64,000 nucleotides of DNA from a virus (IMGVR_UViG_3300005689_000056:1-64000), one strand, 5' to 3'; shown: positions 67 through 61,525, counted from the stretch's first letter. Program-made: numbers and translations. Notes: a model not told the origin generated them from the sequence alone.

Positions 67-2431
67 GTATGACCCCCTCGCGCTGGCTCAGCTTGAGCGA
101 GCAGCGGCTATCAACGCGCTGGAGGTAGATCAGCAGAAAGAGCTTGAGCGACTGCAAAAAGCCAAAGCTGCTGACGAGAAGGAATACATCGCTCGTCAGC
201 AGGAATCGCGCGTTCTTGATCAGCAGCGGTTTGAGTTGATGGTAGCGCAGGACCGTCTGACGAAAGCGATTCTGTCCGGGTTGGGGCAGACCGCGAATCA
301 GGATCTATTCGGTACTGACCAGTTGCTCGCCCGCCTCATCAACGCTAAACAGGTTCTGGACTCTATCAATCAAGCCAGAGGCGCTACCCAACAGGAAGCG
401 AATACCGAGGGGGCTACTGGGCCTGTAAGCACCGCTACACTTGAGAGACTGAAGGAACTCAACACCCGGTCGAATGAGGCTAAGGCTGTCTTCGAAAACC
501 TGACAGCAGAAGTAGCCGGCACGGATACAATGGTTCAGGCCTTCGGTAGAAATGCCCGCAATGTAACGCAGCAGCTTGCATCCGCCCCGAACGCCGACGC
601 ATTGTTTGCTGGTATCCGCCGTAATTCTGCGCTTGCTGGGGATAGCCTTAGCGTATTCACTCGCGGGTTGGCTGCGGTAAACACGTCGCTGGACGAGCAG
701 TCCCGCCTCGCCGCACGCTACGCATTCGGTACCCAGATGGCTGCGGCATACAAGCTGTGGGCGCAGAATGCCAGCGCCGCCGCAGAGCAGGCCAAGAACG
801 CCATTAATCAGGCTGTATCTCAGAACCAGCGCGACTTGGACGATCTCGTGAAGTCTGCGGTAGAGGCAGATCAGCGTATTCGCCAGAATCAGAACACGGC
901 TGATCTGCAAGTTAGCGGGCGGAAGCTGGATGCAGCTACTGAGAGAAAGCTATTTGACCTTGACCTTGAGCGGCAGAAAAAACTAGACATCATCCAGTTG
1001 GATGCCGAGTACGGTCGCCTTAGTGATGAGCAGGCTAAGCGCCGTGAATTTGCCATCAAGCAGGAGTTCGATAAGCGTGCTCAGGCCATCCGTGATGTAG
1101 CCGAGGTTCAGCGTACGGCTTCAGAGAAAGATTCACTGTTTATCCAGTTCGAACAGTCACGCGCGGCTGCAGTCAAGCTGCAGGAACAGATGCGCTTCAT
1201 CAACGAGGCGATGAACGATACTGGTCGGTCTCAGAGTGAGAAAGACGGGTTCTTGTCTCAGCAGTCGCGCACGGCTGCAGAGCTTGAGGCGCAACTGCAA
1301 AGCATGGGCAGACTGCTTCAATCGCTCGCGTCTATCGAGCCGGTCGGCGGGAAAATGCTGATTTCAGTAGAGGAGCTTCGGCCCCTACAGGAGGAGCTTG
1401 CAAAACTAACGGCTGCGTCTGGCGGTCTCCGGCTGGACGGGCTTACCAGCGCTCGCCAGCAGCTTGAAAGTCTAGCTAGTAATCTCGACACTGGCCGGGC
1501 AGCAATGGATCTTATGGTGAAAACCTCGGTTGAGGGCTTGCAGAAGATCGCACAAGCCACCAATACCGAGATGCCGGTTATCGCCCGCAACATCGCTGCC
1601 GCGTTCTCCGACCCCGCAATCCAGCAAGCCATCACGGACATGCAGGCTACGCTTAACGCAGGCCTTGTGGATGTTGGCGGTATTCGCTACTCTGCGGAGC
1701 AAGCCCGCACGGACGCAGAGAACTTTGCAGCATTGTGGAAAGAGGCGGCAGGCTCTATCAGCCTCACCGCGCCGGCCATTGCCTACCCGGAAAACCTACC
1801 ACAAGAAGCGCGCTCGTTCATCAGCAAGCTACAGAAAGACTTGGCTATCCCGATCACTCTGAATATCCCGCCAGTGATCGAAACACCGACCACACCCCGC
1901 GTGTCGGCAGACGTTGCGATTGATCCTGACCAGATCCAGAAAGCTATCGATGCCGGTAACTACAAAATTGATGCGGAGATCAACGCTACTGGTGCGAGTA
2001 ACGTGATCGTCCCTCAGAACAATGCGGACGGGGGCTATATCCGGGGGGCTGGTACAGGGCGTAGCGACTCCATACTGTCTTGGCTGTCGCACCGTGAGTA
2101 CGTGGTTGATGCCAGAACTGTTCGTATGTTTGGTCCGGGGTTCTTCAAGTTCTTGCAATCGGTTGCAAAGTCAGGGGTCAACGTGCTTTCTGCTATCCCG
2201 GCGTTTATGGATGGTGGTATGTTGGGTAGCCGTATCCCACGCACGCCGTCTGTGCTTGCAAGTGCAATACCGAGTGTGCAGAATATCTTCAACCTCGGCG
2301 AGGGTGGGGGTAGTCGCGATGTGATAGATCTCAATCTCAGCGTGAACGGTAAGCCCCGCAGTCGGGTGTCTGGTAGTAGGGAGCAGGTAGATATGTTGGT
2401 GGAAGCTATTCAGGAACTTCGGAGGGTTTGA
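67..2431 (+). CDS. Tail tape measure protein, C-terminal part (5' truncated)
   Basis: Long Ala/Gln/Glu-rich helical ORF ending in the typical TMP motifs ADGGYIRGAGTGRSDSI...EYVV and F-x-DGG; the ORF-track start MCIRDR is adapter-derived. Confidence 0.88.
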
Positions 2432-2817
2432 TGTCTGTCATTACGATAGCGGGGGTGGTACTACCTAAGCGTATCCCTTGGGTGGATCAGTTTTCCTTCT
2501 CCCCAGCCACACATGCGGCACGCCGTACGCTGGGGGGTAAGCTGGTTCTACATACGTCACCTCTGCATGGTGGACGGCCTATCACCTTGAGTACACAAGA
2601 GGATCAAGGATGGGTACCCTACAGTCAGGTTCTGCAGCTTCAGGCCCTGAGTGAGGCGGTAGATACTGTGTATAATCTGCAAATCGGTTCCGAGACGTTC
2701 GAGGTGGTGTTTCGGCATTCGGAGCCGCCAGCTTTTGAAGCTACGCCCCTCATTCCGCGCACCGTACCGTCTGCGGATGATTGGTTCAAAGTCACTATGA
2801 AATTTCTAACCGTGTAG
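2431..2817 (+). CDS. Putative distal tail / tail tip protein
   Basis: TGATG coupling to the TMP gene; RRTLGGKLV...GRPITL pattern seen in small proteins following TMP. Confidence 0.6.
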   Translation: MSVITIAGVVLPKRIPWVDQFSFSPATHAARRTLGGKLVLHTSPLHGGRPITLSTQEDQGWVPYSQVLQLQALSEAVDTVYNLQIGSETFEVVFRHSEPPAFEATPLIPRTVPSADDWFKVTMKFLTV

Positions 2818-2828
2818 GAGCACAGACG

Positions 2829-3845
2829 ATGAGTATCGAGGCTAGCCATATCGTGTGGCGTAAAGCTGCAGTAAATGACGACAGCGCCAGTAACGGTGGT
2901 CGGATGACGGCTACAGTTATCCCCTCCGGTACGAAAAACAATATCTGGCCGGACGTACCGCAAGCGGAGCGACTGAGCGGGTCCACGAAATACCGCAAGG
3001 TCTTCATTCACGTTGCGAACGATGATGACCTGACGTTGATCAATCCGCGCCTGTTTGTCAGCCGACCCACACCCGGAGACGACGCCGTTGTGATTTTCCC
3101 GGGCAGCTTCACTGACGACCAGACAGCCGCAAGCGCGTACTCCGGGGCTGTATACGGTGGCGGTATTCTCGACGCATCCGTGCTGGCCGGGGCCACGCAA
3201 CTCTACGTGATGACCGAGGGGCAGGCTCTTGGTTGCTTTCAGCCGGGTATGAAGATCTTCATCTCCAACACGGAGCCCGGCGGTGGCGGCACTGAGGAGT
3301 ACGCAACCATTGCGGCGGGTGGGGTCAGCTACTCGGGCGGAGACGTGGCACTCATTACGGTGACCGCACCTATCGCTAACCCGTACAGTGCTGGAGCTAC
3401 CCGCGTGTCTTCGGTGTATGAGCCCGGCAGCATTGTCGGTAGCTTCACCAACTTCGCTGTAACGTCTGTGGGTGGTGCGTACAACAGCGTAACGCACCCC
3501 ATCGAGGTCGATAGCATTGGTGGGGTATTCCAGAACTGGACGATCACATTTACCAGCGCCACCAACTACACGATTACCGCTGATACACCGGGCGTGGCGA
3601 CTGCGGTATCCGGCTATACGGGTTCGAGGTCGGCTGACTTCTCCCCGGTCAACCCAGACTTCGCAAAGCCTTATTTTACGCTGCGTAAGGATGGGTTCTC
3701 TGGTACGTTTGTCGCTGGTAATACGATCACGTTCCGTACGGTACCAGCAGCCGTGCCGGTTTGGTACAAACGGATCATCCCTGCGGCGGCTGGGTCTCTG
3801 TCCGGTAACTACGTGACCGTGGCAGTCGACGGGGAATCCGAATAA
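2829..3845 (+). CDS. Virion tail protein (paralog family with 7634, 8427, 24694)
   Basis: AGGAG RBS; NGGRM...NNIWPDV...G..KYRKVFI motif shared with the paralogs. Confidence 0.7.
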   Translation: MSIEASHIVWRKAAVNDDSASNGGRMTATVIPSGTKNNIWPDVPQAERLSGSTKYRKVFIHVANDDDLTLINPRLFVSRPTPGDDAVVIFPGSFTDDQTAASAYSGAVYGGGILDASVLAGATQLYVMTEGQALGCFQPGMKIFISNTEPGGGGTEEYATIAAGGVSYSGGDVALITVTAPIANPYSAGATRVSSVYEPGSIVGSFTNFAVTSVGGAYNSVTHPIEVDSIGGVFQNWTITFTSATNYTITADTPGVATAVSGYTGSRSADFSPVNPDFAKPYFTLRKDGFSGTFVAGNTITFRTVPAAVPVWYKRIIPAAAGSLSGNYVTVAVDGESE

Positions 3846-3925
3846 CCAACCTCCGCTCTTAGCGGTACCGGGCACGACGTTGCAATCGATTGCAATCTCG
3901 TGCCTTTATTTTTTCCGGGGGCGGT

Positions 3926-5224: not shown

Positions 5225-5613
5225 TGGATACCAGACCACCGTTTGAGTACTACAAGGAATACTACCGCCTGTACGCGGTACTTTACGCCACTGACGAGGG
5301 GTTGTTTAAGGAAGTGCCTGATGACCTGTCGTCCGCACAGATAGGAATCGAGGTTGTATATCGTATCTGCCTAGGTACCGATGGCGGGGAGGTACGAGTT
5401 ATCGATTTCTACAACGCGCCGGCCATGGACAAGGATCGCCAGACTGGCGGGCCAGTGATGGTTGACGATGCGGAGTGGTACGTAGAGCCCGGCGACTCCA
5501 CTACTCCGCTTGTGTTGATAAGGCGGGTGAGTGGGTTCTTTGATGAGGACGGTCTTGCTAGGCTATCCGCTATGCACGCGGTAGCAGAGATACAGGAGGG
5601 GATACTGCCGTGA
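5224..5613 (+). CDS. Hypothetical protein (tail module)
   Basis: TGATG coupling upstream, GTGA coupling downstream. Confidence 0.6.
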   Translation: MDTRPPFEYYKEYYRLYAVLYATDEGLFKEVPDDLSSAQIGIEVVYRICLGTDGGEVRVIDFYNAPAMDKDRQTGGPVMVDDAEWYVEPGDSTTPLVLIRRVSGFFDEDGLARLSAMHAVAEIQEGILP

Positions 5614-7634
5614 CCCTGTCTGCCTTTAACGTTCAGTCACCGTACGGAGTAATTCGTGAGTACCGACCAATCGAATTTAAAGGATTCTTCCTACACCCCA
5701 AGTCCGACTCCGCCCCTGAAGGCTGGACATATACTCCCGGCGCAGAACCCCCCCAGAGTAAGCCGGGAGAAGCCGGAGGTAGTGCACCTTACCGGTTCAT
5801 CGGAAAACCCCCGACTAGACCTTGGGTGTGCTACCACACTCCGGGGACATTCCTCTACGGAGAGGTGGATTGGCGCGGGAGATGGAAGGACACAGACAAA
5901 CTCCACAGAGGACGGTACAGGCTGAGCTACCATGGTCCTGCTAGTAGGTACTTCGTAGATCCCGAGTTTTCCTATGGGTCTTCTGATACGCACAACAATA
6001 TCTACGAGGAGGGGCGCTGTATAGCGGTTGCTCCTTTCCCTGTACTGGGTGCATGCTTGCGCTTGATGCAGGACGCACATCACCTAGCTATGGGTGGTAT
6101 AGATCCGCCTATGATCTGGTACGTGATTGCTGTATGCAAGGACGGCAACCGGGATGTAGTCTTGCGCAAACCACGACGCGCAGGTGTTTTAGGCCCTGAC
6201 TACACAGACGAGTTCAGGGCAGCGTCTATGCGCATGTATGACAAGGATGAGGCGCCTGACGGTTGGCTTGAGTTAGGGTCGGCCACACTCAGTACAGCTA
6301 CGCAAGGCACGAATTGTGCAGTTAATATAGCTAAGACTCCGTGGTTTTTTAACTCTGAAGGTACGCAAGCTGCGTGCGTTCGCGAGTGTGAGTTCGACAT
6401 GGATGGCGGGGCGGCAATAGGCACCGTGCGACGTAGCGGATACAACGTATTCACTATGAACGTGTCCGAGCACTACGCCAGCTTTGCTGACCTGCGAAAC
6501 GACCCCGGGTACGGCTACACGCTGACTGTCAAAACATCCAAAGAGGATGAGCTTCGTGTAGTAACGAAGTGGCCCTACACTACATCACGACCCGCACTTG
6601 AGCACTCTTGGGATGTCTATGTGGTAGATCTCGAACTGCGATGCCTCGGGGAATATACTGTAGGTGTGGATTATCGAGATAACACATTCGTGCGTCTTAG
6701 GGTCAAGTCTGACATAAAGCGTACGCAAAAACAGAACATGTATTTTGGTACCGACCCCATACCACACCCTGAGTCGGCTCTTGCCGGCGACAGCAATGCG
6801 GGCGATAAGTACGGGGATATCTACAACTACGAAGGTCCGGATCGCGGTGAGCTATCTGGGGCTACAGAGCAGTGGGCCGCAGTAAACGATAAAGTGTTCT
6901 TGGACTTCTCGGGTGACGGTACCGATACGCATTGGCTATATCGTCGGTTCTCCGGTAGCCGTACTGAGTTCATGACTGGCGTATCCGACCCAGAAGATCA
7001 GAATCTCTACTACGTGTGGAAGCTGAACACATACCCACACCATGTCGATGTGCGTACCCCACACATCATCAGCTATGTGGAGGAAGACGTAATGCAGATG
7101 CTGGCGTACCCGGCACCCGTAGCGCACTATGAGTCCGAGCAGCATTACTACATCGGGGAGGGTAATGATTACAAAAAGATCATGGAGCGCCGGATAGAGG
7201 ACACTTTCGCCTCTGCGGGCGGGGAGGCTACGGGTATTGGTCGCGGTTGGCTATTCAGTGATGTTGTGGATGGCCGATACACGATAGGTACTACCACTAC
7301 CGTGTCTTTCAAGGACGTAGACATTCCTATACCACTGGAACTGGACTACGACTGGCCGGAGAATGTACCCAGCCTGTCGGAGTCCTACTATAATCAGATA
7401 TACAGCCTTGGCGACGGTATGTACCCGCTGCGGGACATGTTGCAATCGATTGCAAAAAACGTGCGGGTAGGAGGGTACGGCGTCGATGACTTTGAAAACG
7501 CGGCAGTATCCATGCAGTACGTGGATCACGAGTACCAGACGAAGCAATACAACTTTCTGACAGGCGGAGACCTAGGCTCGGTCACCTCCGCTGATGGCGA
7601 GAATCAGCGTTTCTACAAACTAGGAGTTTCATAA
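5610..7634 (+). CDS. Putative virion structural protein
   Basis: 674-aa ORF, AGGAGG upstream, position in tail module. Confidence 0.6.
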   Translation: MTLSAFNVQSPYGVIREYRPIEFKGFFLHPKSDSAPEGWTYTPGAEPPQSKPGEAGGSAPYRFIGKPPTRPWVCYHTPGTFLYGEVDWRGRWKDTDKLHRGRYRLSYHGPASRYFVDPEFSYGSSDTHNNIYEEGRCIAVAPFPVLGACLRLMQDAHHLAMGGIDPPMIWYVIAVCKDGNRDVVLRKPRRAGVLGPDYTDEFRAASMRMYDKDEAPDGWLELGSATLSTATQGTNCAVNIAKTPWFFNSEGTQAACVRECEFDMDGGAAIGTVRRSGYNVFTMNVSEHYASFADLRNDPGYGYTLTVKTSKEDELRVVTKWPYTTSRPALEHSWDVYVVDLELRCLGEYTVGVDYRDNTFVRLRVKSDIKRTQKQNMYFGTDPIPHPESALAGDSNAGDKYGDIYNYEGPDRGELSGATEQWAAVNDKVFLDFSGDGTDTHWLYRRFSGSRTEFMTGVSDPEDQNLYYVWKLNTYPHHVDVRTPHIISYVEEDVMQMLAYPAPVAHYESEQHYYIGEGNDYKKIMERRIEDTFASAGGEATGIGRGWLFSDVVDGRYTIGTTTTVSFKDVDIPIPLELDYDWPENVPSLSESYYNQIYSLGDGMYPLRDMLQSIAKNVRVGGYGVDDFENAAVSMQYVDHEYQTKQYNFLTGGDLGSVTSADGENQRFYKLGVS

Positions 7635-10190: not shown

Positions 10191-10664
10191 ATGCCGCTGT
10201 TCACCCCGTTCTACTCTGACACATCCTTGGTATTCGACACCACCACGCTGCAAGGCCTGTCCGCTAACGGTGTGCGTAAGTCAGTACCGGTAGATAACTC
10301 AGCCATTAAGGCAGTAGATGTGCGGCTGATGTTGGACATTCAGCTAGGTAGCACGATCAGCGCTGGGGACAGTATCGACCTGTATCTCGCAGCGGCGCAT
10401 GACCTAGATGTGATGACCGACGGGTATGTACCTAACGCTCTGGAGACGACAGCCGTAGGTGTGCCGGTGTATTCTGAACCTATCATATCCATCCCGGCAC
10501 CGGGCGGGTTTGGTTACATTCGCTGGGAGGCGTCGCTGCTCTCGTACGTGTCTAGTCTCCCGCGCTACTTCTCCATCGTATTCCACAACAAAACCAGCAG
10601 TGCCATGAATTCGTCACATCAGCAGCGACTGACTTGGATCTTCACTACATACGAGTACGCGTAA
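10191..10664 (+). CDS. Hypothetical tail-associated protein
   Basis: GGAG RBS; coupled to the next gene by TAATG. Confidence 0.55.
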   Translation: MPLFTPFYSDTSLVFDTTTLQGLSANGVRKSVPVDNSAIKAVDVRLMLDIQLGSTISAGDSIDLYLAAAHDLDVMTDGYVPNALETTAVGVPVYSEPIISIPAPGGFGYIRWEASLLSYVSSLPRYFSIVFHNKTSSAMNSSHQQRLTWIFTTYEYA

Positions 10665-13066
10665 TGCCGATACATGCTAGGGTCCGTGCAGGCCACCGTG
10701 GGGGCCGAGCATATAACCTTGACCATCAAGGTCTCGGTAAGCCTGTATTCCTTATGACTGCGGCCTCGTACGACCCGATAACTCACAGGGTGAGAGACGA
10801 AGTCACAGGCCGTATAGGGCTACTATCTGCAGGCGTTACAGTACAGTCTGACTTTGCGACCCGGAGACGGGTCTTTGTGTTTGACGGTACTAGCGGATTC
10901 ATAGATTTCGGGCTAGGTTCTGTATTCGATAGTTCGGACAGAGACCTGATCATTGTCGCAAAAGTAAAACCAGCTAACTTGTCTGGTAGTAAGTGCATCG
11001 TAGGCCAGTTTAAAAACGCCACCACCGAGAGAAAGTGGAAGCTGGGTCTTTCTGACAGCACGCCCGCAATCTACATGCGCGGAGTATCGTCTAACACTTC
11101 TTTTACGTTCAGCAACAGCAACCTAGTCAGTGATAGGTGGAATACCCTAGCGGTGAGCCATACGTACAGCAGGGCTAGCCCGCTATACGGGGTGGTAGTG
11201 TGCCACAATTCGACACGTAATAACTACTACGGTACCAACACCACTTACGAGTCTGCGAATTTGCAATCGCTTGCAAACCGGCTGCTAGTCGGCGTCTGTA
11301 CGGGAGGATCAGACCAGTACATTGAGTATTTCGCCGGCAGTATCGAGTGGGTCGGTATCTGGAAAAGGCCATGTCCGCGAGTGCAGGTACTCGCCCGCTA
11401 CGCTAGAGCTATGGATCGCACTACGGCACCCGCTAAAGCAGGGTTCTTGCCAGCACAGCACGGCGGTAACGAGTTTTTCGTGGATAGTGCATGGTGGTCA
11501 CATACAACCAATCTCGCCCCGTACCCGACAGTAACCGTCACTACTGGCGGGTTTAGTAATGTCGAGGTCGGGGACGAGGTATCGATATACCAGAATGGGT
11601 ACTTAGGTGCGTTCAGGTGTGTTCGTAAGGGTACGATAGGTCCGACCACGGGAGTAACTACAGTACTACCACGGGCTGAAGGCGGGTTACTGAGTGTTAT
11701 ACAGAACGGCACCTCCGTACAGTATCGTGTCCCTTTCCTTTTTGAGCCGCTAAGTGGCCGTAGCGCTGCGCTGCCTGCGCCTACGCTCGCGTCTGTGTCT
11801 CTTCGCGTCTGTGGCGGGGACACGGTAAACGTGGCTAAGGGCGTAGTTGGTGGGTCGTTGGAGATACGCAGTCAGGCGGAACTCACAAAAGCTCTAGGCT
11901 TTGCTGGTACCTACACCATGAGGCACACGTATTACGAGAACAGGGTTAGCGACCGCCCGGTGAGACTAGCCGGGTATGACCCAGCAACCATGAACCCCCA
12001 CAACGTATTTGCCTACGGTGGGGCACTAGACGGCGTACTGACTGTTACTGGCGGTACGGTGTTTATGGAAGATTGCGTTCTACCGCAAAGCATGATAGTG
12101 GTCGTCGGGCGCATGATCGCTAAAAACGTAGTGTCCTCACCATCCTACGTAGAATCCAGACTGTCGGCCATTGAGGTTCGCAACATGCACACCCGCGCAG
12201 GGCTGGGGGCTACCACTTCCACCAGTCGAGGCATATTCACGGTGGCTGATGGCGTATTGCGTATTCGGGGCAGTAAGTTGGCGGCATCCGCACCGGTAGT
12301 GGATTTAGCACGAGGTGATGTGCGCGTGGTAGGGTCGTACCTGCAGAACCTAGTACCGCTAAATACCTCATCCTTTAGAGAACAGGTTTCCCTAGCAATG
12401 TGTAATCGCGCTATCGGGCAGGGTACTGTTTCGCTAGACGGCTGTGGGCTATATCGTAAGTTCGGAGTAACACGCGCCACTGCCGATATGCGCAATGTGC
12501 GCAGCAGGATAGCTGTGCGTATGAACTCGCTGCACGAACTCGGAACCACAATCAGTTCCGGCACGCAGGATATCTACACGTCGAATCTCGCGTACCACAT
12601 CGCCAGCGCATCTGAGATGCCTGACCTACCGTACTCTTACTACATGGAGTTTGAGTCAGAAGACCCAGTGGTCGCTAAGCGCACCTCCATAGCGAGAGCA
12701 ACGCACTATATAGAGTTTCGGTTTAGAAACACTACTGTGCGTAACCTTACGGTAGAGGTGGACTACCTAATGCCTGTGGCTGTGCGCGCGGGGGCCACCG
12801 CGCAGATGGAAGCATGGATTCCTCACCCGTCCGGTGGTGTGTCGAAAGTAGAAGACCCAATGACGTATGCGCTTTCTAATAGCGCGGAAACCAACATCGT
12901 CAGCGTGAGTAAGCCCGTTACCGATTGGGTACGCCCTAGCGGTACGTGGTACGCGTTTACCAGACAGTTTGACATCACCGACTGCCCGGTAGGCGAGATC
13001 GTTGTGCGCCTGATCACTACGAACATGTACCTCACCTATGTCAACCCTATTTGGCGAGTGTTGTAA
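10664..13066 (+). CDS. Tail fibre/receptor-binding protein with LamG/ConA-like domain
   Basis: FDGTSGFIDFG...AKVKP...WNTLAV...YFAGSIEWVGIW matches the LamG-like jelly-roll pattern. Confidence 0.7.
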   Translation: MPIHARVRAGHRGGRAYNLDHQGLGKPVFLMTAASYDPITHRVRDEVTGRIGLLSAGVTVQSDFATRRRVFVFDGTSGFIDFGLGSVFDSSDRDLIIVAKVKPANLSGSKCIVGQFKNATTERKWKLGLSDSTPAIYMRGVSSNTSFTFSNSNLVSDRWNTLAVSHTYSRASPLYGVVVCHNSTRNNYYGTNTTYESANLQSLANRLLVGVCTGGSDQYIEYFAGSIEWVGIWKRPCPRVQVLARYARAMDRTTAPAKAGFLPAQHGGNEFFVDSAWWSHTTNLAPYPTVTVTTGGFSNVEVGDEVSIYQNGYLGAFRCVRKGTIGPTTGVTTVLPRAEGGLLSVIQNGTSVQYRVPFLFEPLSGRSAALPAPTLASVSLRVCGGDTVNVAKGVVGGSLEIRSQAELTKALGFAGTYTMRHTYYENRVSDRPVRLAGYDPATMNPHNVFAYGGALDGVLTVTGGTVFMEDCVLPQSMIVVVGRMIAKNVVSSPSYVESRLSAIEVRNMHTRAGLGATTSTSRGIFTVADGVLRIRGSKLAASAPVVDLARGDVRVVGSYLQNLVPLNTSSFREQVSLAMCNRAIGQGTVSLDGCGLYRKFGVTRATADMRNVRSRIAVRMNSLHELGTTISSGTQDIYTSNLAYHIASASEMPDLPYSYYMEFESEDPVVAKRTSIARATHYIEFRFRNTTVRNLTVEVDYLMPVAVRAGATAQMEAWIPHPSGGVSKVEDPMTYALSNSAETNIVSVSKPVTDWVRPSGTWYAFTRQFDITDCPVGEIVVRLITTNMYLTYVNPIWRVL

Positions 13067-19957: not shown

Positions 19958-19988
19958 TTTTGAAATCGATTGCAAATAGGAGAGCGAG

Positions 19989-26060: not shown

Positions 26061-26076
26061 ATTGTATGGAGGAATC

Positions 26077-26661: not shown

Positions 26662-26680
26662 TTGCAGAAGGAGATAACTC

Positions 26681-28572: not shown

Positions 28573-28609
28573 CAGACTTTTGCAATCGATTTCAATTAGG
28601 AGAGATAGA

Positions 28610-38137: not shown

Positions 38138-38161
38138 AATCGATTGCAAAGTGGGGATGCC

Positions 38162-38365
38162 ATGGACCGGTACGCGTATCTACTCAGCCTAGATGAGATC
38201 TTCTTCGTGAAGGAGCATCAGGATAGCCCGCAGGTTCAGGCACTCATTGCCACCTGCGAAAAGATTGTAGACCTTGAGGAGCAACTTGACGCGCTGCGCG
38301 ATACGATGGCTGTGCAGAGTCAGGAAATGTTCCGGCGTAGAAGGAGAGTACGGCGTGACGTATAG
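38162..38365 (+). CDS. Hypothetical protein
   Basis: Short ORF between helicase and polymerase. Confidence 0.55.
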   Translation: MDRYAYLLSLDEIFFVKEHQDSPQVQALIATCEKIVDLEEQLDALRDTMAVQSQEMFRRRRRVRRDV

Positions 38366-47621: not shown

Positions 47622-47983
47622 GTCGCGAGTCTTTTCTGAATCGCGATACCAAGCACGGTAACGCCTCTTACCGCAGATCTCGTAAACAGGAGAAAGAACT
47701 GTCTATCAGGCTGCGGGGGAGGCAAACTGTAGCGTCGGGTAGTAAAGCAGAGAAGGGGGATGTGAGGGTCAAGCGTATTCTACGGCTTGAGGCGAAGACG
47801 ACTAAACATCGCAGCTTTTCTGTAACCCTTGACATGATTAATCAGATAGAGGAGGCTGCGCTTTCGAGCGAGGAGCTTCCCTGCATCTTGATAGAGTTCA
47901 ACGATGGCAACGGCAAGCGAATCAAAGAAGTGGCCGTAGTACCAAGTTACGTACTTGACGACCTTGTCTCTAAACATAGTTGA
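47618..47983 (+). CDS. PD-(D/E)xK nuclease, Hjc-type Holliday junction resolvase
   Basis: QEK...SGS..KGDV...LEAK. Confidence 0.7.
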   Translation: MSRESFLNRDTKHGNASYRRSRKQEKELSIRLRGRQTVASGSKAEKGDVRVKRILRLEAKTTKHRSFSVTLDMINQIEEAALSSEELPCILIEFNDGNGKRIKEVAVVPSYVLDDLVSKHS

Positions 47984-47997
47984 AATCGATTGCAAAC

Positions 47998-49400: not shown

Positions 49401-49513
49401 TTTGCAATCGATATCAAATTTTCTGGCGTTTGCAGTTTTTGAAGAACGTAGTACTATTCATCCACGCAGTAACCACGCATCGGTAACAATCCATCAACTG
49501 ATAGGTACCCAAA

Positions 49514-51196: not shown

Positions 51197-51901
51197 ATGC
51201 CGGGAGCAAAGAAACACGTAAGGCGTGCACGCAGTCGCGTACGGGCTGCTACGTCTTTGGGGGTGCCTCGCGTAGAGATGCACTATCTGGACATTTCGTC
51301 TATCGTACCCTACGAGTTGAACCCGAGGGATAACGCTGCCGCTATCGAGTCTGTCGCTAACTCCATCCGTAGTTTTGGGTTCCTTGTACCCGTAGTCGTG
51401 GACGCTAATAATGTACTTGTGGCGGGGCACACCCGGGTCGAGGCAGCTAAGACCCTAGGCCTTAATGAAGTACCTGCTATCAAGGCTGACAAACTCACCC
51501 CAGACCAGATTGACGCGTTCCGTATCATCGATAACAAGGTATCGGAACTCGCACGCTGGGACTTCGACCTACTGTCGGTCGAGATCACCCGGCTTACCGG
51601 GTCGGGTATTGAGTTCGTTGGTTACGGCTTTACGCAGGAAGAGGTTGATTGTCTCTCGGATGCTGTGGCCGACGATTGCCTCAATGTCGATAACCTCGTA
51701 GACCAAGAGGCCCGGGACCGCACACGACGCGCGGAACGGCGCGCACCAGCTACGGCACGGTTCGTGTTGGGGGAGTTGGTATTCTTCATCACAGCCACGG
51801 AGTACCGGAACTGGGTAAGCGGGGTACGAGAGCTTTGCGACTACGACGAGACCGCCATCACCGCAGAGATCAAGCGGCGTCTCGGTATTTCACAGGGGTA
51901 A
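51197..51901 (+). CDS. ParB/Srx-like N-terminal domain protein
   Basis: PYELNPR...SIRSFGFLVPVVVD...AGHTR..AA...DNK..E...WD. Confidence 0.88.
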   Translation: MPGAKKHVRRARSRVRAATSLGVPRVEMHYLDISSIVPYELNPRDNAAAIESVANSIRSFGFLVPVVVDANNVLVAGHTRVEAAKTLGLNEVPAIKADKLTPDQIDAFRIIDNKVSELARWDFDLLSVEITRLTGSGIEFVGYGFTQEEVDCLSDAVADDCLNVDNLVDQEARDRTRRAERRAPATARFVLGELVFFITATEYRNWVSGVRELCDYDETAITAEIKRRLGISQG

Positions 51902-51905: not shown

Positions 51906-53396
51906 ATGATCAAGAATACGCCTATTAGCTCGCTGCAGCCTGACAAGAAAAACCCTCGCAAGGCAGACGACGCCAGACTAGGGCTACTGCGATTGTCGCT
52001 CGCTAAACTCGGGTTTATCATGCCTGTGTACTCCACGCCGGGTGGTATGCTTTTGTCCGGACACCAGCGTCAGCGAGTAGCTACCGAGATGGGCATCGAA
52101 AACATCCCGGTGGTTACCATCAAGGTAGCCGAGAAAGACATCCAAGGTATCAACATCCTGTTCAACCGCGCCACGAACGATTTTGGGGCACTGGATACAG
52201 GGGCTAAGGCCAAGGATAAGTTAGATATCGAGACGGTTATTGAGGCTGCGGATAATCTGCCCGACTTTGATCACGAGAACTGGTTTGCACTCGATTGCAA
52301 AAATGAAAACATTCGAGGTCTGGGCAAGGACGATAGCGACCGCTACGACAAGAAAGCTGTAGTCGTAGCTACCAGCCTGATGCGAATGGGTATCGAGATC
52401 CCGGTAGTCATCTCCCAGTCTGGCAAGATCGTAAACGGTATCAATCGATTGTTCGCGGCGAAGGAGGCGGGGCGTACGGAGTGGCCGGTTATCCGTATCC
52501 CCGACGAGTACGCTACGGTAGCTCTCAACTTCCTGAACTACCTCTCGATGGACTTCCACGTAGATGAGGACTTCGCCAGACTGATGCGGTATTCGGCTTT
52601 CCGACGCCCGCAGAACAATCGAGGCAACGTACCGAAGGCCTACAGATTCTGGGCGAATGGGGGGCGTACGCTACTTGACCGCGATTCATACAGCCCGGAA
52701 TACTGGCGCAACTTCCGTGATCTGCACGGGCTTAGCGTTTTGGATTTTGGTGCTGGTCTCTGCAAGGTCAAGCCGTTCTTGGAAGAACGTGGCATGGCTT
52801 GCAGCGAGTTTGAGCCATACCGCATCGACCCTGAGAGCGGGGTGGGCGTGCCGTCCCCTGACTACTCACGTATGAAGGCCCGAGAGTTCCTTACCGAGAT
52901 TGCGGATGGTCGTGTGTTCACTTCGATCTTTCTGGCATCGGTACTCAACAGCATCCCGTTTCCGAAAGATCGTATGGCTGTGCTCGCCATCGTCAATGCG
53001 TTGTCGAGCAAGGACACAGTCACCTATGGTACCTGCAGGGATATCTCTGACTTTGTTTACGAGTATGGCGGCATCCGTCAGGCCAACTACTTCGTATTCG
53101 ACTCAGAGCCGGGGGTTCGTGTAGGTGACGTAGTTAAGTCCCCCAAGATCCAGAAGTTCCATACACAGGAAGAGGCAGAGGCTATGTTCTCTCGCCTGTG
53201 GGTGAAGCGCGAGTACTGGCCGGGCGGGAACGTCTTCTATTTCAAGCTGTCGTCACCCAAGACCGTCAACCCTAAAGTACTATCTCAGGCGCTGGAGTTG
53301 GAGTTTGAGCTACCATATGCAGATGGTGCGGATATGGGGCTCAGTACGTATGCTAAGAAGTGCTTTGGCAAGCGTCTTGGGATCAAGCTGCCTTAA
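51906..53396 (+). CDS. Tandem ParB-like domains fused to a class I SAM-dependent transferase
   Basis: NPR...LGFIMP...SGHQR; GIEIPVV...NGINR..AA; then VLDFGAG, EFEPY, FTSIFLASVLNSIP. Confidence 0.8.
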   Translation: MIKNTPISSLQPDKKNPRKADDARLGLLRLSLAKLGFIMPVYSTPGGMLLSGHQRQRVATEMGIENIPVVTIKVAEKDIQGINILFNRATNDFGALDTGAKAKDKLDIETVIEAADNLPDFDHENWFALDCKNENIRGLGKDDSDRYDKKAVVVATSLMRMGIEIPVVISQSGKIVNGINRLFAAKEAGRTEWPVIRIPDEYATVALNFLNYLSMDFHVDEDFARLMRYSAFRRPQNNRGNVPKAYRFWANGGRTLLDRDSYSPEYWRNFRDLHGLSVLDFGAGLCKVKPFLEERGMACSEFEPYRIDPESGVGVPSPDYSRMKAREFLTEIADGRVFTSIFLASVLNSIPFPKDRMAVLAIVNALSSKDTVTYGTCRDISDFVYEYGGIRQANYFVFDSEPGVRVGDVVKSPKIQKFHTQEEAEAMFSRLWVKREYWPGGNVFYFKLSSPKTVNPKVLSQALELEFELPYADGADMGLSTYAKKCFGKRLGIKLP

Positions 53397-53417
53397 CAAC
53401 AACTGTGGGTGATACTC

Positions 53418-54164
53418 ATGACTTTGAAGATCGAGAATGGGAGGGTTATTCACTACCCTACTGGTGACAAGTTCGCTTTCGACGGGGAGGTGGCTTTGAT
53501 CTTCCCTGATATGGCCCGGAGGTCAATACCTTTGTACGATGAAGTACACCGTATGCACGCCTCGCTACTGTCCCACGTGTGGGATACGAAGTCGGCGCAT
53601 GTAGTGGATGTCGGGGCCTCGCGGGGAGAATTTTTCCGTGCTATTTGCAATCAATTGCAATGCTCGGAGCGCCACCCTCCTAGCTGGTTGCGTCTTACCG
53701 CTATCGATTCGTCACCACACATGATGGCTAGACTGAAAGACGATATGCCTAAAGTGGAAGTCATCACCGGGTATGCTCAAGACTTGCAGCCTCTTGAGCA
53801 TAAGGCAGATGTGATATCTATGTTCTACATTCTGCAATTCATCGAGGCTGACGCGGATAAGTTGAAGGCCTTGCGCTGGGCAGCGGATAACCTCAAGCCG
53901 GGCGGGGTATTGCTGCTAGGGCAGAAAGATACGGTGACACATACGTACGACGCTATGTTCACTAGGGAGTACCATAACTTTAGGCGCCGCAACGGCTACA
54001 CCATTGCGGAGATTGCGGCTAAGTCTGCCGCACTCAAGAACTCGATGTGGACTAGCTCGCCAGCATGGCTTGAGGATATGTGCATCCAAGCCGGGTTCTG
54101 CGACTATGTCGTAACGTCGCGTTGGCTGCAGTTTTCTACCAGCATCTGCACTATTGGGGGGTAA
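53418..54164 (+). CDS. CmoA-like protein (carboxy-SAM synthase family)
   Basis: FAFDGEVA.IFPDMARRSIPLY, DVGASRG, AIDSSPHM, LQF, LKPGG.L.L..K, F...NGY...EI..K..L.N.M follow the CmoA motifs in order. Confidence 0.8.
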   Translation: MTLKIENGRVIHYPTGDKFAFDGEVALIFPDMARRSIPLYDEVHRMHASLLSHVWDTKSAHVVDVGASRGEFFRAICNQLQCSERHPPSWLRLTAIDSSPHMMARLKDDMPKVEVITGYAQDLQPLEHKADVISMFYILQFIEADADKLKALRWAADNLKPGGVLLLGQKDTVTHTYDAMFTREYHNFRRRNGYTIAEIAAKSAALKNSMWTSSPAWLEDMCIQAGFCDYVVTSRWLQFSTSICTIGG

Positions 54165-54165: not shown

Positions 54166-54915
54166 ATGGCTGACAGGGAAAATGGAGAGACTGTAGGTCG
54201 TCGCATCTCGCGTCGGCGTTCAGGCTTTGCGTTCTCGGGGGCTTCTGTCTCTGACTCCACGCAGCAGCAAGGCGGCAATATCAATGACGGTGTGGAGAGG
54301 ATGGTCAATACCCCGCCATCGTCTTTACCGCCGCCTGAGCCACCACAGACAATCGCGGGGACGCCGTCTGAGGACTTCAACCCGCAGGGGCGTCTGGCGC
54401 AGGTGCGCCGCCGTTCTACCACCTACGAACGAGAGTACCGGCTGAATCTACTACACCGCCTCATGATGCGTGGGGTACCGCTCGATGAGATAGCAAACCA
54501 GCTTGGTATCTCTGTGTCTCAGGTATATCGTGATCGTGACGAGTTGAAGGAGCGCCATCGCGCATCGTCTCGCAGTCTGGATATCGACGAGATCATCGGA
54601 GACAGCAAGGGGTATTACGAGGAAGCTGGTGCTATGGCTATGCGCGCCGCCTCCAAGAACGACCTACCCTACGCAATGCGTCTTGCGGCTGTACGTACAG
54701 CGTTAGCCGCCAAGAATGACATGCACCGTTTCTTCCAGACAGCAGGTGTCTATGACGTGTTGCGTTTTCGCAAGGCGCAGGACGGTAACGGTACGTCCGA
54801 TGTTCGTCGCCTCATGGAGAATACTGAGCGCCTTCTGTCCGGCGGTCTGGGTGACCTCAGCGGTGCGGTCAACGACGCTATCGATTCTGGCGATCAGGAG
54901 AATCTTGACCTATGA
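54166..54915 (+). CDS. Terminase small subunit (putative)
   Basis: HTH GVPLDEIANQLGISVSQVYRD; ATGA-coupled to terL. Confidence 0.7.
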   Translation: MADRENGETVGRRISRRRSGFAFSGASVSDSTQQQGGNINDGVERMVNTPPSSLPPPEPPQTIAGTPSEDFNPQGRLAQVRRRSTTYEREYRLNLLHRLMMRGVPLDEIANQLGISVSQVYRDRDELKERHRASSRSLDIDEIIGDSKGYYEEAGAMAMRAASKNDLPYAMRLAAVRTALAAKNDMHRFFQTAGVYDVLRFRKAQDGNGTSDVRRLMENTERLLSGGLGDLSGAVNDAIDSGDQENLDL

Positions 54916-57797
54916 CTGCCACACACACCCGCCGCGTAGGGAGACGACGGACCCCGGGTGCCGCGCCGGGGGTTAGCGAGCAGGCTCGCGCCATGGTTCA
55001 AGGGGCGTGGGAGGAGGCTGAACGTTGCGAGAATAAGCTGTTCGGTGAGATGTACGCCACCGCGTTAGAGCGCAAGGTGTATTACAACGATACGGTGCTA
55101 TTCGACTTCATGAAGCACCTCACGCACGCTCCGGTAGGCATAGAAGAGTTTCTGTCGGGGTCGGAGTTTCTGGGGGCTACTGACATATCGTTGTGGCCCG
55201 AAGTACGCGCAGCCATCGTTGATATTAACAAGTACTGGTGGAAAGGTCAGGTAGGAGGGGCCAAGCATGAGGCTCTTCTGATGGGCTCGTGTGTAGACGC
55301 GCTAACCGAGTTTTTAACCCCGAACGGCTGGAAGTATATTTCCGATTTTGAGGAAGGTGATCTTGTCGGTCAATACTCGGTAGACGGTACTCTAGAGTTT
55401 GTGACACCGCAGGCGTACATCCGCCGCCGCCACCGAATGTTTTACCACTTCGCACCTCGGGGCGGTCTGGATATGATGTTAACTCCGGGGCATCGCGTTA
55501 TCTACCGGAACAGGAACACCGGGGAAATCTGCGAGATGTCCGCAGAGGACGTGGCCGAGAACCACAATAGAACTGCTACCGGGTTCACAGGTAAGTTCCT
55601 ATCTACCTTTACCCCTACGGGGCGGGTAGGGATTGATCTATCCGACGAACAGATCCGTGTGATGGTTATGGTTCATGCCGATGGCTCCTTTGATACAAGG
55701 GATGACTCCAGTTGGTGTAATGTGATCGTAAAAAAGCCGCGGAAAATTCGCAGGGCTAGGCGTATCCTTCAGGAGGCGGGTATTGCGTTTACTGAAGTAC
55801 CGCACAACGGAGACTACCGCCGCATCCGTTTTTACGCGCCGCAACGGAACAAGACATACGAGGGTTGGTGGGGTTGCACACAGGACCAGCTCCGTATTGT
55901 TACCGACGAGGTAATGCACTGGGATGGCTCCGCGAGGCACCAACAGTTCTACACTGCGAAGAAAGAGGAAGCTGATTTCATCCAGTACGCCTATCTCGCT
56001 ACAGGGGTACGGGCTACCATGCAGTGGCAAGATCGCGGGGGAAATCGGTCTGTCGAGTATAGGGTGAAGCGTTGTCGTTCCGCTGAATACACCATGTCCG
56101 CTTCGCCTAAAGGGCCTGAAGCACAGCTTGTTGAAGCCAGTGATGGGTATTGCTACTGCTTCACACTGCCTACGGGTATGTGGTTGGCGAGGCGCAACGG
56201 TAGTGTATACGTCACCGGGAACACAGGTAGCGGAAAAACGGAAATATCGAAGATTACCCAGCTATACCACCTTTACCTGTTGTCCTGCTTGGACAACCCG
56301 CAAGGCTACTACGGCCTGCCGAAAGCGACCTCTATTGTGTTCGCTATCATGGCCGCTAAGCCGCACGTGACGAAGAAGGTTATCTACGACCCTCTGCGCC
56401 ACATGATTGAGCACATCCCGTATTTTCAGAAGCACCTACGACCGAGCAAGCTGGTTGAGTCCGAGATGATCTTTGAGGAGAAGAACATCCGTGTAGTGCC
56501 TGCGGGTGTGGACGCCGACTCGATCCTAGGTGAAGCAGTACTTTCGGGGATCATTGACGAAATCAACTTCATGAACGTTGTGCTACGTTCTAAGAAGGCA
56601 GAGGTAACCACAGGCCGCGCTGGGGTCTACGATCAGGCCCAGACAATACACAGTGCAATGACCCGCCGTATCAAGGGTCGTTTCACCAAGCCCGGACCCA
56701 AGATAGGGATACTCTGTACGTCATCGTCAACCCGCTATAAAGGGGACTTTACCGACAAGCGTAAGGCTCAGGCTCTGCAGCACGACGAGCAAGGTATCTA
56801 CATCTACGATAGGCCGCAATACGAGGTAAAACCTCAAGAAAATTTCTGTGGGCAAAAGTTTAGGCTGCTTGTCGGTAACGACATGATCAACGATGTGCGT
56901 ATCCTGAAGGACGGGGACGCCGTACCGCCAGAGGCTCGCGTTCTAGACATCCCCATCGAGTATGAGACGGAGTTCCAGAGAGACCCGCATTCCGCCCTAC
57001 GAGACATCTGCGGTATATCCACCTCGGCTATTTCCCCCTTCATTACCCGTCGTTTCAAGATCTACGAGGCTGTGTCTGCCGGGGAGGAGGAAGGTATCCA
57101 GTCGTTCCTCAACAAGGACAACGTTATTCTAGGTGTGGATGGGATGCCGGTCGTGAAGTACAGCCATTACTGTACCGACCCCTCACGTCCGCGCTATGTG
57201 CACGTTGACTTGTCGAAGACCGGGGACAGTTGTGGTATCGCCATGCTGAGATACGATGGCCTCACCTCCGTTACACGCAGTAATGGGGCTATCGAGAAGC
57301 TACCTATCGCTACCATTGAGATGGCGTGCTCAATACAGCCTGACTCCAATAATGAAATAGATTTTGCGGAGGTTCGTACATGGATACGGCAGCTACGTGA
57401 TGTATACGGGTACCCGATCAGGGCGGTAACATACGACGGTATCTTTAGTATCGAGTCCGTACAGCAGTGGCGCAAGATAGGTATGCGCACTGGTAATATT
57501 TCGGTAGACAGAACGTCCGCACCGTACAAAAACCTGCGTGACGCCTATAACGATAACCGCATACGGCAGTACCATCAGGAGGTACTGATCCGCGAGCTTT
57601 TTGATTTGGAGTACGATGACGATAAGGACAAAGTCGATCACCCGGTGAATGGCAGTAAGGATGTGGCGGATGCAGTGGCCGGCGCCTACTACTCGATGCT
57701 GACCAAGCGCAGTACTTGGGTGTCCGAGTCAGGTAACGAGGTAATAGGTAATGGCCGTGCGGAATTTGGTGAACGTTTCGAGGGGAGTAGGCGATGA
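54912..57797 (+). CDS. terL: Terminase large subunit, intein-containing
   Basis: Spliced Walker A GS/TGSGKT, Walker B GIIDE, nuclease HVDLS...D, DHP..GSKDVADAVAG. Confidence 0.9.
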   Translation: MTATHTRRVGRRRTPGAAPGVSEQARAMVQGAWEEAERCENKLFGEMYATALERKVYYNDTVLFDFMKHLTHAPVGIEEFLSGSEFLGATDISLWPEVRAAIVDINKYWWKGQVGGAKHEALLMGSCVDALTEFLTPNGWKYISDFEEGDLVGQYSVDGTLEFVTPQAYIRRRHRMFYHFAPRGGLDMMLTPGHRVIYRNRNTGEICEMSAEDVAENHNRTATGFTGKFLSTFTPTGRVGIDLSDEQIRVMVMVHADGSFDTRDDSSWCNVIVKKPRKIRRARRILQEAGIAFTEVPHNGDYRRIRFYAPQRNKTYEGWWGCTQDQLRIVTDEVMHWDGSARHQQFYTAKKEEADFIQYAYLATGVRATMQWQDRGGNRSVEYRVKRCRSAEYTMSASPKGPEAQLVEASDGYCYCFTLPTGMWLARRNGSVYVTGNTGSGKTEISKITQLYHLYLLSCLDNPQGYYGLPKATSIVFAIMAAKPHVTKKVIYDPLRHMIEHIPYFQKHLRPSKLVESEMIFEEKNIRVVPAGVDADSILGEAVLSGIIDEINFMNVVLRSKKAEVTTGRAGVYDQAQTIHSAMTRRIKGRFTKPGPKIGILCTSSSTRYKGDFTDKRKAQALQHDEQGIYIYDRPQYEVKPQENFCGQKFRLLVGNDMINDVRILKDGDAVPPEARVLDIPIEYETEFQRDPHSALRDICGISTSAISPFITRRFKIYEAVSAGEEEGIQSFLNKDNVILGVDGMPVVKYSHYCTDPSRPRYVHVDLSKTGDSCGIAMLRYDGLTSVTRSNGAIEKLPIATIEMACSIQPDSNNEIDFAEVRTWIRQLRDVYGYPIRAVTYDGIFSIESVQQWRKIGMRTGNISVDRTSAPYKNLRDAYNDNRIRQYHQEVLIRELFDLEYDDDKDKVDHPVNGSKDVADAVAGAYYSMLTKRSTWVSESGNEVIGNGRAEFGERFEGSRR
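55290..56222 (+). mobile_element. Intein (311 aa) with LAGLIDADG-type homing endonuclease
   Basis: Starts CVDALTEFLTPNGWK.I; VHADGS and MHWDGS blocks; ends YCFTLP...VTGN followed by Thr. Confidence 0.92.
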
Positions 57798-58295: not shown

Positions 58296-58298
58296 ACT

Positions 58299-58528: not shown

Positions 58529-58582
58529 GGTATTTCAGTAGTCGGTGTATCCGCATAGTTTTGCAATCGATTGCACATTACC

Positions 58583-60889: not shown

Positions 60890-60901
60890 TAACCGCTTAA
60901 C

Positions 60902-61184
60902 GTTGCAGCGGACGTGCGGAGACAAAATCGTTAATCAGGCCTAAGCTAAGCCGGGTAAGTGCTAAGCATCTGACTCCTAATCAGACCAAGGCAAGTCCCT
61001 CAATGGGCAACCTCAAGTGTCATGGTTTAAGGCTAAAGGTAGTAAGGTTTAGTCAGATTAAGGCGGTAAGTGTTATGTGCGTAAGGATGACGCCTGTAGG
61101 TTAGGCAAAATCCCTGTACGAAGTTAGGCGCCCTGAGCCTTACGAATCTTCGAGGGCTTCCCGTATGGGTTGCTGCAACCACCA
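60902..61184 (+). ncRNA. Candidate structured ncRNA
   Basis: Closing stem GTTGCAGCGG / TTGCTGCAAC, no credible ORF, nine TAAG units, anticodon-arm-like hairpin, downstream hairpin at 61190-61212. Confidence 0.55.
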
Positions 61185-61219
61185 ACACCGCAGGGGGCGC
61201 AATACCCCCTGCACTTTCA

Positions 61220-61330
61220 CAGTCTATCGGCCAGCTTCGTGCCTGCGCACGGCGCCCGTCCGGCTCCTCCCTCCCCTCACCGGACGAGCGCTGCCTGATA
61301 CCCCCCGGCACGAAGCTGCCCCATAGACTG
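61220..61330. ncRNA. Long imperfect hairpin, candidate sRNA
   Basis: Nested inverted repeats of 8, 12 and 12 bp around a C/T-rich loop. Confidence 0.45.
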
Positions 61331-61525
61331 TCAACCGCATACAGGCGGCACAGCGTATAATCGCAATCGATTTCAACTCTCCAAAAAGGGGGAATATCTG
61401 TGAGATATAGCAATGCGCTTCTTACTAGACATCATTACCGTGATATGCGGCCTGATCGTACTGATTGCACTCGCTTCGGCGTCCCCGGTGTCATCATTTC
61501 TCGGTTGGATGGTTAGCTTGCTGAA

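Follow-up and report, generated by a model that had tools for sequence, protein, structure and literature searches.

The DNA considered here is the first 64 kb (64,000 nucleotides, below "the window") of the virus record IMGVR_UViG_3300005689_000056, a genome of 99,461 bp with 55% G+C that is rated complete and comes from sludge metagenomes. The element in question is a 16-bp palindrome, TTGCAATCGATTGCAA, which recurs along this genome as a lattice of sites. Nearly all genes of the phage lie on the plus strand, and scans with PHROGs and Pfam registered tail genes, an AAA ATPase, a DnaB-like helicase, a family-A DNA polymerase, a DnaG-like primase, a superfamily 2 (SF2) helicase, a RecA/UvsX-like recombinase, two Holliday-junction resolvases, a Cas4-type exonuclease, two ParB_N-domain proteins, an S-adenosylmethionine (SAM) methyltransferase and the small and large terminase subunits. 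No ParA-type ATPase was found among approximately 40 proteins scanned, which make up a part of the proteome. DNA of this phage recurs in sludge and freshwater metagenomes, as assembled contigs of 12 sequencing runs, none of which is listed as RNA.

Scanning of the window with TTGCAATCGATTGCAA, allowing up to two mismatches, gave 22 sites versus 0.03 expected from dinucleotide-preserving shuffles, none of 100 of which reached 22. These are the same 22 coordinates, with the same mismatch classes, that were listed in the original prediction. Permission of a third mismatch added no site in the window, and the set is therefore discrete. Ten sites fall at gene junctions and 12 inside genes, where all three reading frames are used, which agrees with the split claimed before. 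The individual sites are as follows (G002 and Pseudomonas phage SM1 are related genomes described below; ORF, open reading frame).

2153–2168, one mismatch: in the tape-measure-like ORF 50–2431, reads LQSVA; the orthologous G002 position also has a site
3880–3895, perfect: intergenic, at the apex of a terminator-like hairpin, with a T-run after it
7440–7455, perfect: in ORF 5610–7634
11261–11276, one mismatch: in ORF 10634–13066
14302–14317, one mismatch: in ORF 13051–15738
16202–16217, two mismatches: in the tail-protein ORF 15739–18450
17383–17398, one mismatch: in the same tail-protein ORF, 15739–18450
19960–19975, one mismatch: junction, stop codon plus 2 nt, 13 nt to the next ATG, abuts the ribosome-binding site
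23922–23937, perfect: in ORF 23472–24656
26652–26667, two mismatches: junction, overlaps the end of ORF 26062–26661, 13 nt to the next ATG
28580–28595, one mismatch: junction, stop plus 7 nt, 14 nt to the next ATG
31059–31074, two mismatches: junction, right behind a terminator-like hairpin, 12 nt to the start of the AAA ATPase gene
35598–35613, two mismatches: in ORF 34904–36298, reads AIDC; position kept in G002 and SM1 (ASVC)
38134–38149, one mismatch: junction, the TTGAAA arm holds the TGA stop of the DnaB-like helicase gene, 12 nt to the next ATG
41172–41187, one mismatch: in ORF 41097–41519, reads LQSIA; position kept in G002
44338–44353, two mismatches: in the 5′ part of the SF2 helicase ORF 44167–45747
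47980–47995, one mismatch: junction, the TTGAAA arm holds the TGA stop of the resolvase gene 47618–47983; the exonuclease ATG is 2 nt further on
49402–49417, two mismatches: junction right after the RuvC stop, upstream of a sigma-70-like promoter, 96 nt before gene 49514–50878
52285–52300, one mismatch: in the double-ParB/transferase ORF 51906–53396, reads ALDC; position kept in SM1 (ANAC)
53645–53660, one mismatch: in the methyltransferase-fold ORF 53409–54164, reads CNQL; kept in G002
58561–58576, one mismatch: junction, 6 nt to ATG
61361–61376, two mismatches: right after a TAA triplet; a junction by gene calls, called stop plus 34 nt

In the whole 99,461-bp genome 37 sites were found at up to two mismatches and 40 at up to three. 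The weakest site scored 19.2 bits with a symmetrised position weight matrix, versus 10.3 bits for the best non-site. The information profile of 40 aligned sites consists of the palindrome alone, plus T on the left and A on the right; it contains no directional element within 40 bp on either side and no conserved −10/−35 promoter element beside the sites. The hexamer TTGCAA is stop-free in all frames, and since it is itself palindromic, the element can be described as two symmetric hexamers spaced one helical turn apart. A likeness to the −24/−12 elements of sigma-54 promoters was rejected by eye, as the GC-to-GC spacing is 10 rather than 11 and GG is missing.

The exact 16-mer was detected in multiple copies on several contigs of about 100 kb in IMG/VR, and three whole genomes (G001, G002 and G005; 48–58% G+C, proteins 25–70% identical to those of the phage) were taken for comparison. 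Megablast of 20 kb against isolated phages gave no near relative. According to the polymerase, the nearest cultured relatives (49% identity) are the Pseudomonas aeruginosa Samunavirus phages SM1 and PaMx31, followed by Agrobacterium JP1, Rhizobium L338C, Aeromonas HJ05 and Rhodobacter RcDurkin; synteny with the phage genome was seen for SM1 and JP1. Weight-matrix and pattern scans gave the following numbers of sites.

G000 (the 99,461-bp phage itself): 40 sites, T-CG-A centre
G001: 30 sites, T-CG-A centre
G002: 46 sites, T-CG-A centre
G005: 58 sites, T-CG-A centre
SM1: 33 sites, GTGCAA-RCGY-TTGCAC
JP1: 46 sites, TTGCAA-ACGT-TTGCAA
RcDurkin: 48 sites, motif identical to that of G000
L338C: 51 sites, TGCAAC-NN-GTTGCA
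HJ05: 31 sites
PaMx31: 32 sites
Vibrio SIO-2, RcZahn and RHph_TM16: about 25 sites each, TA, TG/CA or AT centres

A reversed-pattern control gave 0–4 matches per genome. The core TGCAA-N4-TTGCA is invariant and present in 25–58 copies in every relative tested, while the central 4 bp are lineage-specific. Conservation in relatives, proposed earlier as a check, was thus found in phages of Pseudomonas, Agrobacterium, Rhodobacter, Rhizobium, Aeromonas and Vibrio, and the lattice is a trait of a clade that comprises at least 12 related phage lineages with hosts in Alpha- and Gammaproteobacteria. Bacterial chromosomes differ. Five bacterial genomes with one exact copy have 1–7 sites per 4–6 Mb versus 37 per 0.1 Mb in the phage, that is, the motif is two to three orders of magnitude sparser there, and this check of the original prediction was passed as well. 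When 185,579 species genomes were searched for the exact 16-mer, most matching contigs had one copy, at about the level of chance, and no chromosomal lattice was seen. Among these single-copy matches Burkholderiales and Alishewanella/Rheinheimera are over-represented. Exact copies were also noticed on 78–100 kb contigs of Betaproteobacterium AAP65, Nevskia, Pseudoduganella and an acidobacterial metagenome-assembled genome; whole-genome counts of 1–7 in such assemblies mean that they are not lattice phages.

The sites are distributed far more evenly than random placement would allow. The 39 genome-wide gaps have a mean of 2472 bp (standard deviation 1048, range 553–4916 bp) and a coefficient of variation (CV) of 0.42 versus 0.98 expected from random placement; in 100,000 simulations such evenness was never reached. 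Since sites favour gene junctions, the spacing was re-tested under two nulls that respect this preference: junction and in-gene sites were either permuted within their own class, with junction space weighted by length, or junction sites were drawn from gene ends with equal weight. The evenness remained unchanged in both cases (P<5e-5 for CV and P about 5e-5 for the largest gap). Under-dispersion was likewise seen in each of the five relatives analysed (CV 0.46–0.72, P from <5e-5 to 0.03 under both nulls), and the six genomes together show CV of 0.42–0.72 versus about 1.0 for random. Thus, the under-dispersion claimed earlier survives conditioning on junction and in-gene classes. The claimed gap range of 1.2–4.9 kb is correct for the window (1181–4916 bp) but not outside it, where the lattice is looser and gaps decrease down to 553 bp.

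Junction space accounts for 8–14% of each of the six genomes, yet holds 20–57% of sites, which corresponds to a 4–5-fold enrichment in five genomes (P 1e-6 to 1e-11) and an approximately 2.5-fold one in G001 (P 0.03). Junction sites usually begin 0–5 nt past the stop codon, even if a spacer of 60–270 nt lies behind them, and at compact junctions they abut the next ribosome-binding site. The TTGAAA variant supplies the TGA stop at 38134, 47980 and five G002 sites, and the ATGCAA variant supplies the ATG start at genome position 88806 (outside the window) and at SM1 3840 and 80846. Some of the symmetric variants noted before thus have a coding cause. Constrained genes, those of polymerase and terminase, have no internal sites, the DNA polymerase gene being bracketed by sites 38134 and 41172; less constrained tail genes do carry them. 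Most in-gene sites of genes orthologous between G000 and G002 occupy the same aligned position, with proteins only 30–57% identical. Two in-gene positions are kept down to SM1, where the peptides are altered to the SM1 motif (AIDC to ASVC and ALDC to ANAC). As positions are kept while peptides follow the motif of the lineage, selection acts on the DNA, which bears out the corresponding earlier claim; judged by these alignments, it is the coding sequences that bend to keep the array.

Preference for gene ends may have a transcriptional meaning. A protein bound there would serve as a roadblock or insulator, similar to a stoperator or a KorB-like silencer, and set temporal classes in a genome read almost wholly from one strand. 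The position of junction sites 0–5 nt after stops, preserved with about 100 nt of spacer behind, fits this idea, as do the sites in or beside terminator-like hairpins (3880, 31059 and, outside the window, 86727 and 95354), the site just upstream of the promoter of gene 49514–50878, whose product is considered below as a reader, and the common flanking context of some JP1 early-region sites. However, about half of the sites lie inside essential genes of every module, no conserved promoter element accompanies them, the motif is dyad-symmetric unlike oriented stoperators, and operon control does not require even spacing. Moreover, Samunavirus relatives such as UF_RH6 are reported to be lytic (PMC10281142), and neither the genes scanned nor the annotations of SM1 and JP1 contained an integrase. 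The view that this is not an ordinary operator set is supported, and the roadblock seems unlikely to us. As for the hairpins themselves, site 3880 (window 3868–3925) and a site within genome 71295–71340 form the apex of longer GC-rich inverted repeats; a T-run follows the 3868–3925 repeat, and the palindrome there is the loop of a terminator-like hairpin.

With nearly all genes on one strand every site is transcribed, and the element could act as RNA, its 6-bp hairpin after the stop codon being used for processing, stability, antitermination or translational coupling. The tight fit between stop codon and next ribosome-binding site, together with the strand bias of some variants, is compatible with such a role. 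The pattern of substitutions is not. Within genomes double changes at mirrored positions number 17 versus 21.9 expected, seven of them complementary, so there is no compensatory excess. In SM1 the centre variants are strand-symmetric (ACGC 11 versus GCGT 10). The class that would form an A.C mismatch in RNA (11 sites) equals in frequency its mirror, which would form G.U (10 sites), and one site versus 4.7 expected belongs to the A-U class. The absence of compensatory excess and the equality of A.C and G.U classes therefore fit recognition of duplex DNA, not of a hairpin. Besides, the stem is short and AT-rich, and half of the sites are located in ORFs, where ribosomes would melt it. An RNA role is thus very improbable, and a structured RNA element or intrinsic terminator was rejected, as compensatory excess is missing and most sites have no T-run. 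A second class of sites, TTGCAAAC(G/A)TTCACAA, was noticed in JP1 (e.g. 21629, 51087, 67445, 72116, 74841 and 80341); several of them have common flanking sequence (…TTGCAAcggagcaa), and they may form a sub-family whose role is directional or linked to promoters.

If duplex DNA is recognised, the binding protein may be supplied by the host, for instance a LacI/PurR-type repressor, which the phage would titrate with decoys or borrow. The E. coli PurR box, GCAAACGTTTGC (PMC3159470), is present in the JP1 variant. A literature search with motif strings returned only papers on PurR/CcpA operators. A search for the LacI-type helix-turn-helix (HTH; PF00356) in G000, G001, G002, G005 and SM1 gave nothing over the cut-off, as expected if the protein belongs to the host. 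On the other side, phages of Vibrio, Aeromonas, Pseudomonas, Rhizobium, Agrobacterium and Rhodobacter all have an identical half-site, several lineages have lost the central CpG needed by LacI-type hinge helices, and the spacing is not explained, which makes a host factor the least credible of the options, with a minimal chance. A phage-encoded reader of LacI/PurR type was rejected: the five genomes encode no HTH of this kind, and in place of the central CG SIO-2, RcZahn, RHph_TM16 and L338C have TA, TG, AT or NN. The resemblance to LacI operators pointed out originally therefore proved superficial.

Two neighbouring phage genes are of interest as sources of the reader.

49514–50878, plus strand: P0002, 454 amino acids, candidate reader
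51197–51901, plus strand: P0001, 234 amino acids, ParB N-terminal-domain protein

Most genes common to all lattice phages encode enzymes or virion parts, and P0002 is the exception. It consists of a small N-terminal domain, a disordered poly-Glu/Lys-Ala-Pro tract of about 130 residues and a helical C-terminal domain with an HTH (GWTK) that is remotely similar to the DNA-binding domains of ParB/KorB. PHROGs and Pfam assign no function to it, and none of its more than 100 homologues, many on contigs of about 100 kb, is named. ESM Atlas and BFVD gave DUF3102/ParB-HTH leads. For the AlphaFold (AF2) model of residues 205–454 (predicted local distance difference test, pLDDT, 84) VIA-align ranked the DNA-binding domain of ParB-parS first (Z 7.5), with Spo0J at 7.0 (root-mean-square deviation 2.5, 89 residues), VirB at 6.0, KorB at 5.9 and 5.5, SopB at 5.0 and P1 ParB at 4.6; seven ParB-family DNA-binding domains are among its top 50. 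The presumed recognition helix opens with GW[ST]K, in which G, W and K are invariant in an alignment of 33 sequences; among nine lineages only JP1 and RHph_TM16 deviate, each at one position (one W-to-Y and one G-to-P). A homodimer was modelled with ipSAE of 0.56 versus 0.00 for the best of three controls, contact agreement of at least 76% and pLDDT of 73; among solved structures 20 of 30 homodimers and one of 23 monomers attained this mark.

The family is present in each of the lattice phages examined. Profile search found it in G005, RcDurkin, L338C, HJ05, SIO-2 and RcZahn, and tblastn detected it only in Vibrio, Pseudomonas, Rhizobium, Aeromonas, Agrobacterium and Rhodobacter phages of the lattice type. 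In all genomes compared for neighbouring genes (G000, SM1, JP1, SIO-2, RcZahn and RHph_TM16) the P0002 gene follows those of the Cas4-exonuclease and RuvC. A lattice site is present between RuvC and the P0002 gene, 89–111 nt before its start, in five of six genomes (G000, G002, G005, SM1 and JP1), and coordinates point to a matching arrangement in RcZahn and RHph_TM16; other junction sites are rarely common to the compared genomes. Right after this site the phage has a sigma-70-like promoter (TTGCAG, 17-bp spacer, TACTAT; window 49418–49513), then a 5′ leader of about 55 nt, and comparable promoters stand behind the site in G002, G005 and SM1. Such a conserved site upstream of the promoter looks like autoregulation. 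P0002 is the most likely reader, with all support being circumstantial, and of the binders named in the original prediction the product of 49514 is the best supported owing to its remotely ParB-like fold, homodimer model and presence in all lattice phages examined; those encoded at 45609 and 58834 are not conserved across these phages. P0001 may be a partner or a rival reader. Foldseek recognised in it the ParB N-domain fold (E 2e-7 to 1e-5 versus pNOB8 ParB-N, Noc and ParB), with GHTR in place of the ParB motif GERR, no HTH and a conserved C-terminal beta-beta-alpha-alpha module.

The same neighbourhood gives rise to another explanation, namely that the sites are targets of a modifying or nicking enzyme, encoded by the ParB-domain/transferase cluster near the terminase or represented by one of the two resolvases, which would label or cut into the DNA periodically, as in nicked genomes of the T5 type. 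Genes of the ParB_N protein, double-ParB transferase and SAM methyltransferase are indeed just downstream of the P0002 gene, and the central CG is changed to TG/CA in nine of 40 G000, 14 of 46 G002 and 14 of 46 JP1 sites, as if C were methylated. Yet the central CG is not conserved in L338C, SIO-2, RcZahn and RHph_TM16, the transferase genes were not found by BLAST in G005 or JP1, double-strand nicking of the palindrome would break the genome, and even spacing is left unexplained. We regard an enzyme target as rather improbable.

Several other features of the window were noticed. The large-terminase ORF (window 54912–57797) encodes 961 amino acids versus 652 in G002 and 643 in SM1, and its residues 125–452 match a PhoH-like family, which in SM1 is represented by a separate gene; terL contains either an inserted element or a PhoH fusion. 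At window positions 33434–34250 DUF1257 and DUF2997 proteins are encoded side by side downstream of the AAA ATPase; all three are kept in G001, G002 and SM1, and JP1 also has the DUF2997 protein. Short Arg-rich tags (RVRRVRR-like) were found at the N- or C-termini of the products of 32730–33374, 38162–38365, 41097–41519, 51197–51901 and 61861–62193, which are unrelated non-virion proteins including the ParB_N protein, and G002 and SM1 have comparable ones. The poly-Glu tract of the 49514 protein could be their docking surface.

Taken together, sequence comparisons and structural models suggest that the palindromes are a docking array for a phage-encoded dimeric protein and that it is read by the P0002 family; in our estimate the chances that this is correct are about even. 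A P0002-family dimer would dock on the double-stranded palindromes via its C-terminal domain, which remotely resembles the HTH domain of ParB/KorB/Noc. With 30–58 sites per genome, no long gaps and little redundancy, the reader would be anchored every 1.5–3.5 kb or so (mean gap, depending on the genome), the sites being placed where the coding cost is lowest, right after stops, and entering genes only to close the gap that a long gene would create. Such an array may serve for marking or organisation of the whole chromosome, i.e. bridging, compaction or recruitment via the acidic/basic disordered tract, and would act while the DNA is replicated, recombined and packaged, the reader regulating its own promoter as well. 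We favour organisation or marking of the whole chromosome over transcriptional roadblocking. The original interpretation is thus supported in part: the even spacing and the selection on DNA are borne out, and a protein loaded every ~3 kb to organise, silence, protect or package the chromosome is its inferred part.

Several observations speak against the docking array read by P0002. The fold match is remote, since all Z-scores are below 8, in the range which VIA-align warns is common for helical proteins; Foldseek of the P0002 model found no significant counterpart in PDB, none of the 33 family members matches a Pfam family, and a profile of the 33 homologues has no match in PDB. Co-occurrence is weak evidence because lattice phages have many core genes in common, and G001 has no site upstream of its P0002 gene. 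P0002 has no ParB N-terminal nucleotide-binding domain, so that spreading as a sliding clamp is not implied. Finally, the symmetry is not perfect everywhere: JP1 varies in the right arm only, with ACAT found 11 times and ATGT never, and in G005 and the Rhodobacter phage RcDurkin many left arms on the coding strand read TTACAA or CTACAA, with the right arm kept as TTGCAA. This outer-arm strand bias hints at a directional component beyond a purely symmetric reader.

An extended version of the docking array can also be proposed, in which the lattice is a scaffold of a membrane-less phage compartment: P0002 would occupy approximately 40 even anchors on each genome copy, its long poly-Glu/Lys-rich disordered tract would drive condensation and recruit Arg-rich-tagged phage enzymes, and replicating phage DNA, kept apart from the host nucleoid and from defence nucleases, would be passed on to the terminase. 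This is a long shot.

Palindromes dispersed over a whole genome are known from a few phage groups, where they are unexplained or serve lysogenic repression. The paper on RcDurkin mentions no palindrome or motif (PMC8601537), and a literature search on Samunavirus, phage names and palindromes, with the SIO-2 genome paper outside its scope, gave no description of the lattice. What is new here is the even spacing measured in six divergent genomes, the half-site conserved across hosts in two proteobacterial classes while protein identities drop to 25–40%, and the coding sequences that bend to keep the lattice. All this points to a chromosome-level function in apparently lytic phages, old and costly. 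Cultured lattice phages are available (Pseudomonas SM1/PaMx31, Agrobacterium JP1, Rhodobacter RcDurkin and Vibrio SIO-2), and as some Samunavirus phages are studied for Pseudomonas therapy, an essential cis-lattice, if true, would matter for their engineering.

Among known systems, several belong to the ParB family. KorB is a ParB-family HTH dimer, which binds 12 OB operators, short palindromes arranged round plasmid RK2, including those far from promoters, and its DNA-binding domain (PDB 1r71, 8qa8) is among the structural matches of P0002. KorB, however, has an N-terminal CTP-binding domain in the same chain and acts with KorA and a ParA partner, whereas P0002 is devoid of such a domain and its putative sites are 3–5 times more numerous and belong to an apparently lytic phage. 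Noc, a ParB paralogue, uses many ParB-type palindromes across the Bacillus subtilis chromosome for spatial marking rather than gene control and was found among the matches of the neighbouring P0001; it differs in its cellular chromosome, membrane-tethering role and canonical ParB architecture. As to ParB/parS itself, the 16-bp dyad (18–20 bp with the T/A flanks) is comparable with its 13–16-bp palindrome, but the GERRxRA-type N-domain is not in P0002, and the ParB_N fold resides in the separate P0001 with the patch GHTR.

Operators of the phage P1 C1 repressor and conserved inverted repeats of phiC31 provide examples of one regulator with many dispersed sites, which are located at promoters of temperate phages. 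The lattice shares with them a single phage regulator, if P0002 is the one, and genome-wide dispersal of sites; we know of no even spacing or in-gene lattice in these systems. Stoperators of L5 and other Cluster A phages resemble the lattice in having about 30 copies of one short site over a phage genome, mostly in short intergenic gaps. They are asymmetric, oriented with transcription and serve the lysogenic repressor (PMC4351075), whereas the sites described here are dyad-symmetric, have no directional flank, are often in genes and belong to apparently lytic phages. In Cluster O mycobacteriophages more than 30 copies of a 17-bp palindrome, TGTTCGG-N3-CCGAACA, were found between and within genes (Cresawn et al. 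2015, PMC4351075); a dimeric protein acting outside transcription initiation was predicted to bind them, with the function left open by the authors. Like the lattice sites, these copies are dyad-symmetric and scattered over a non-temperate phage, here a siphovirus of approximately 70 kb, in intergenic as well as coding DNA, and most of them lie outside promoters. Cluster O differs in its unrelated sequence, host phylum and phage lineage and has genes on both strands, and even spacing is not reported for it. The Cluster O palindrome is the closest published counterpart of the lattice, as a parallel pattern only, from which common descent does not follow.

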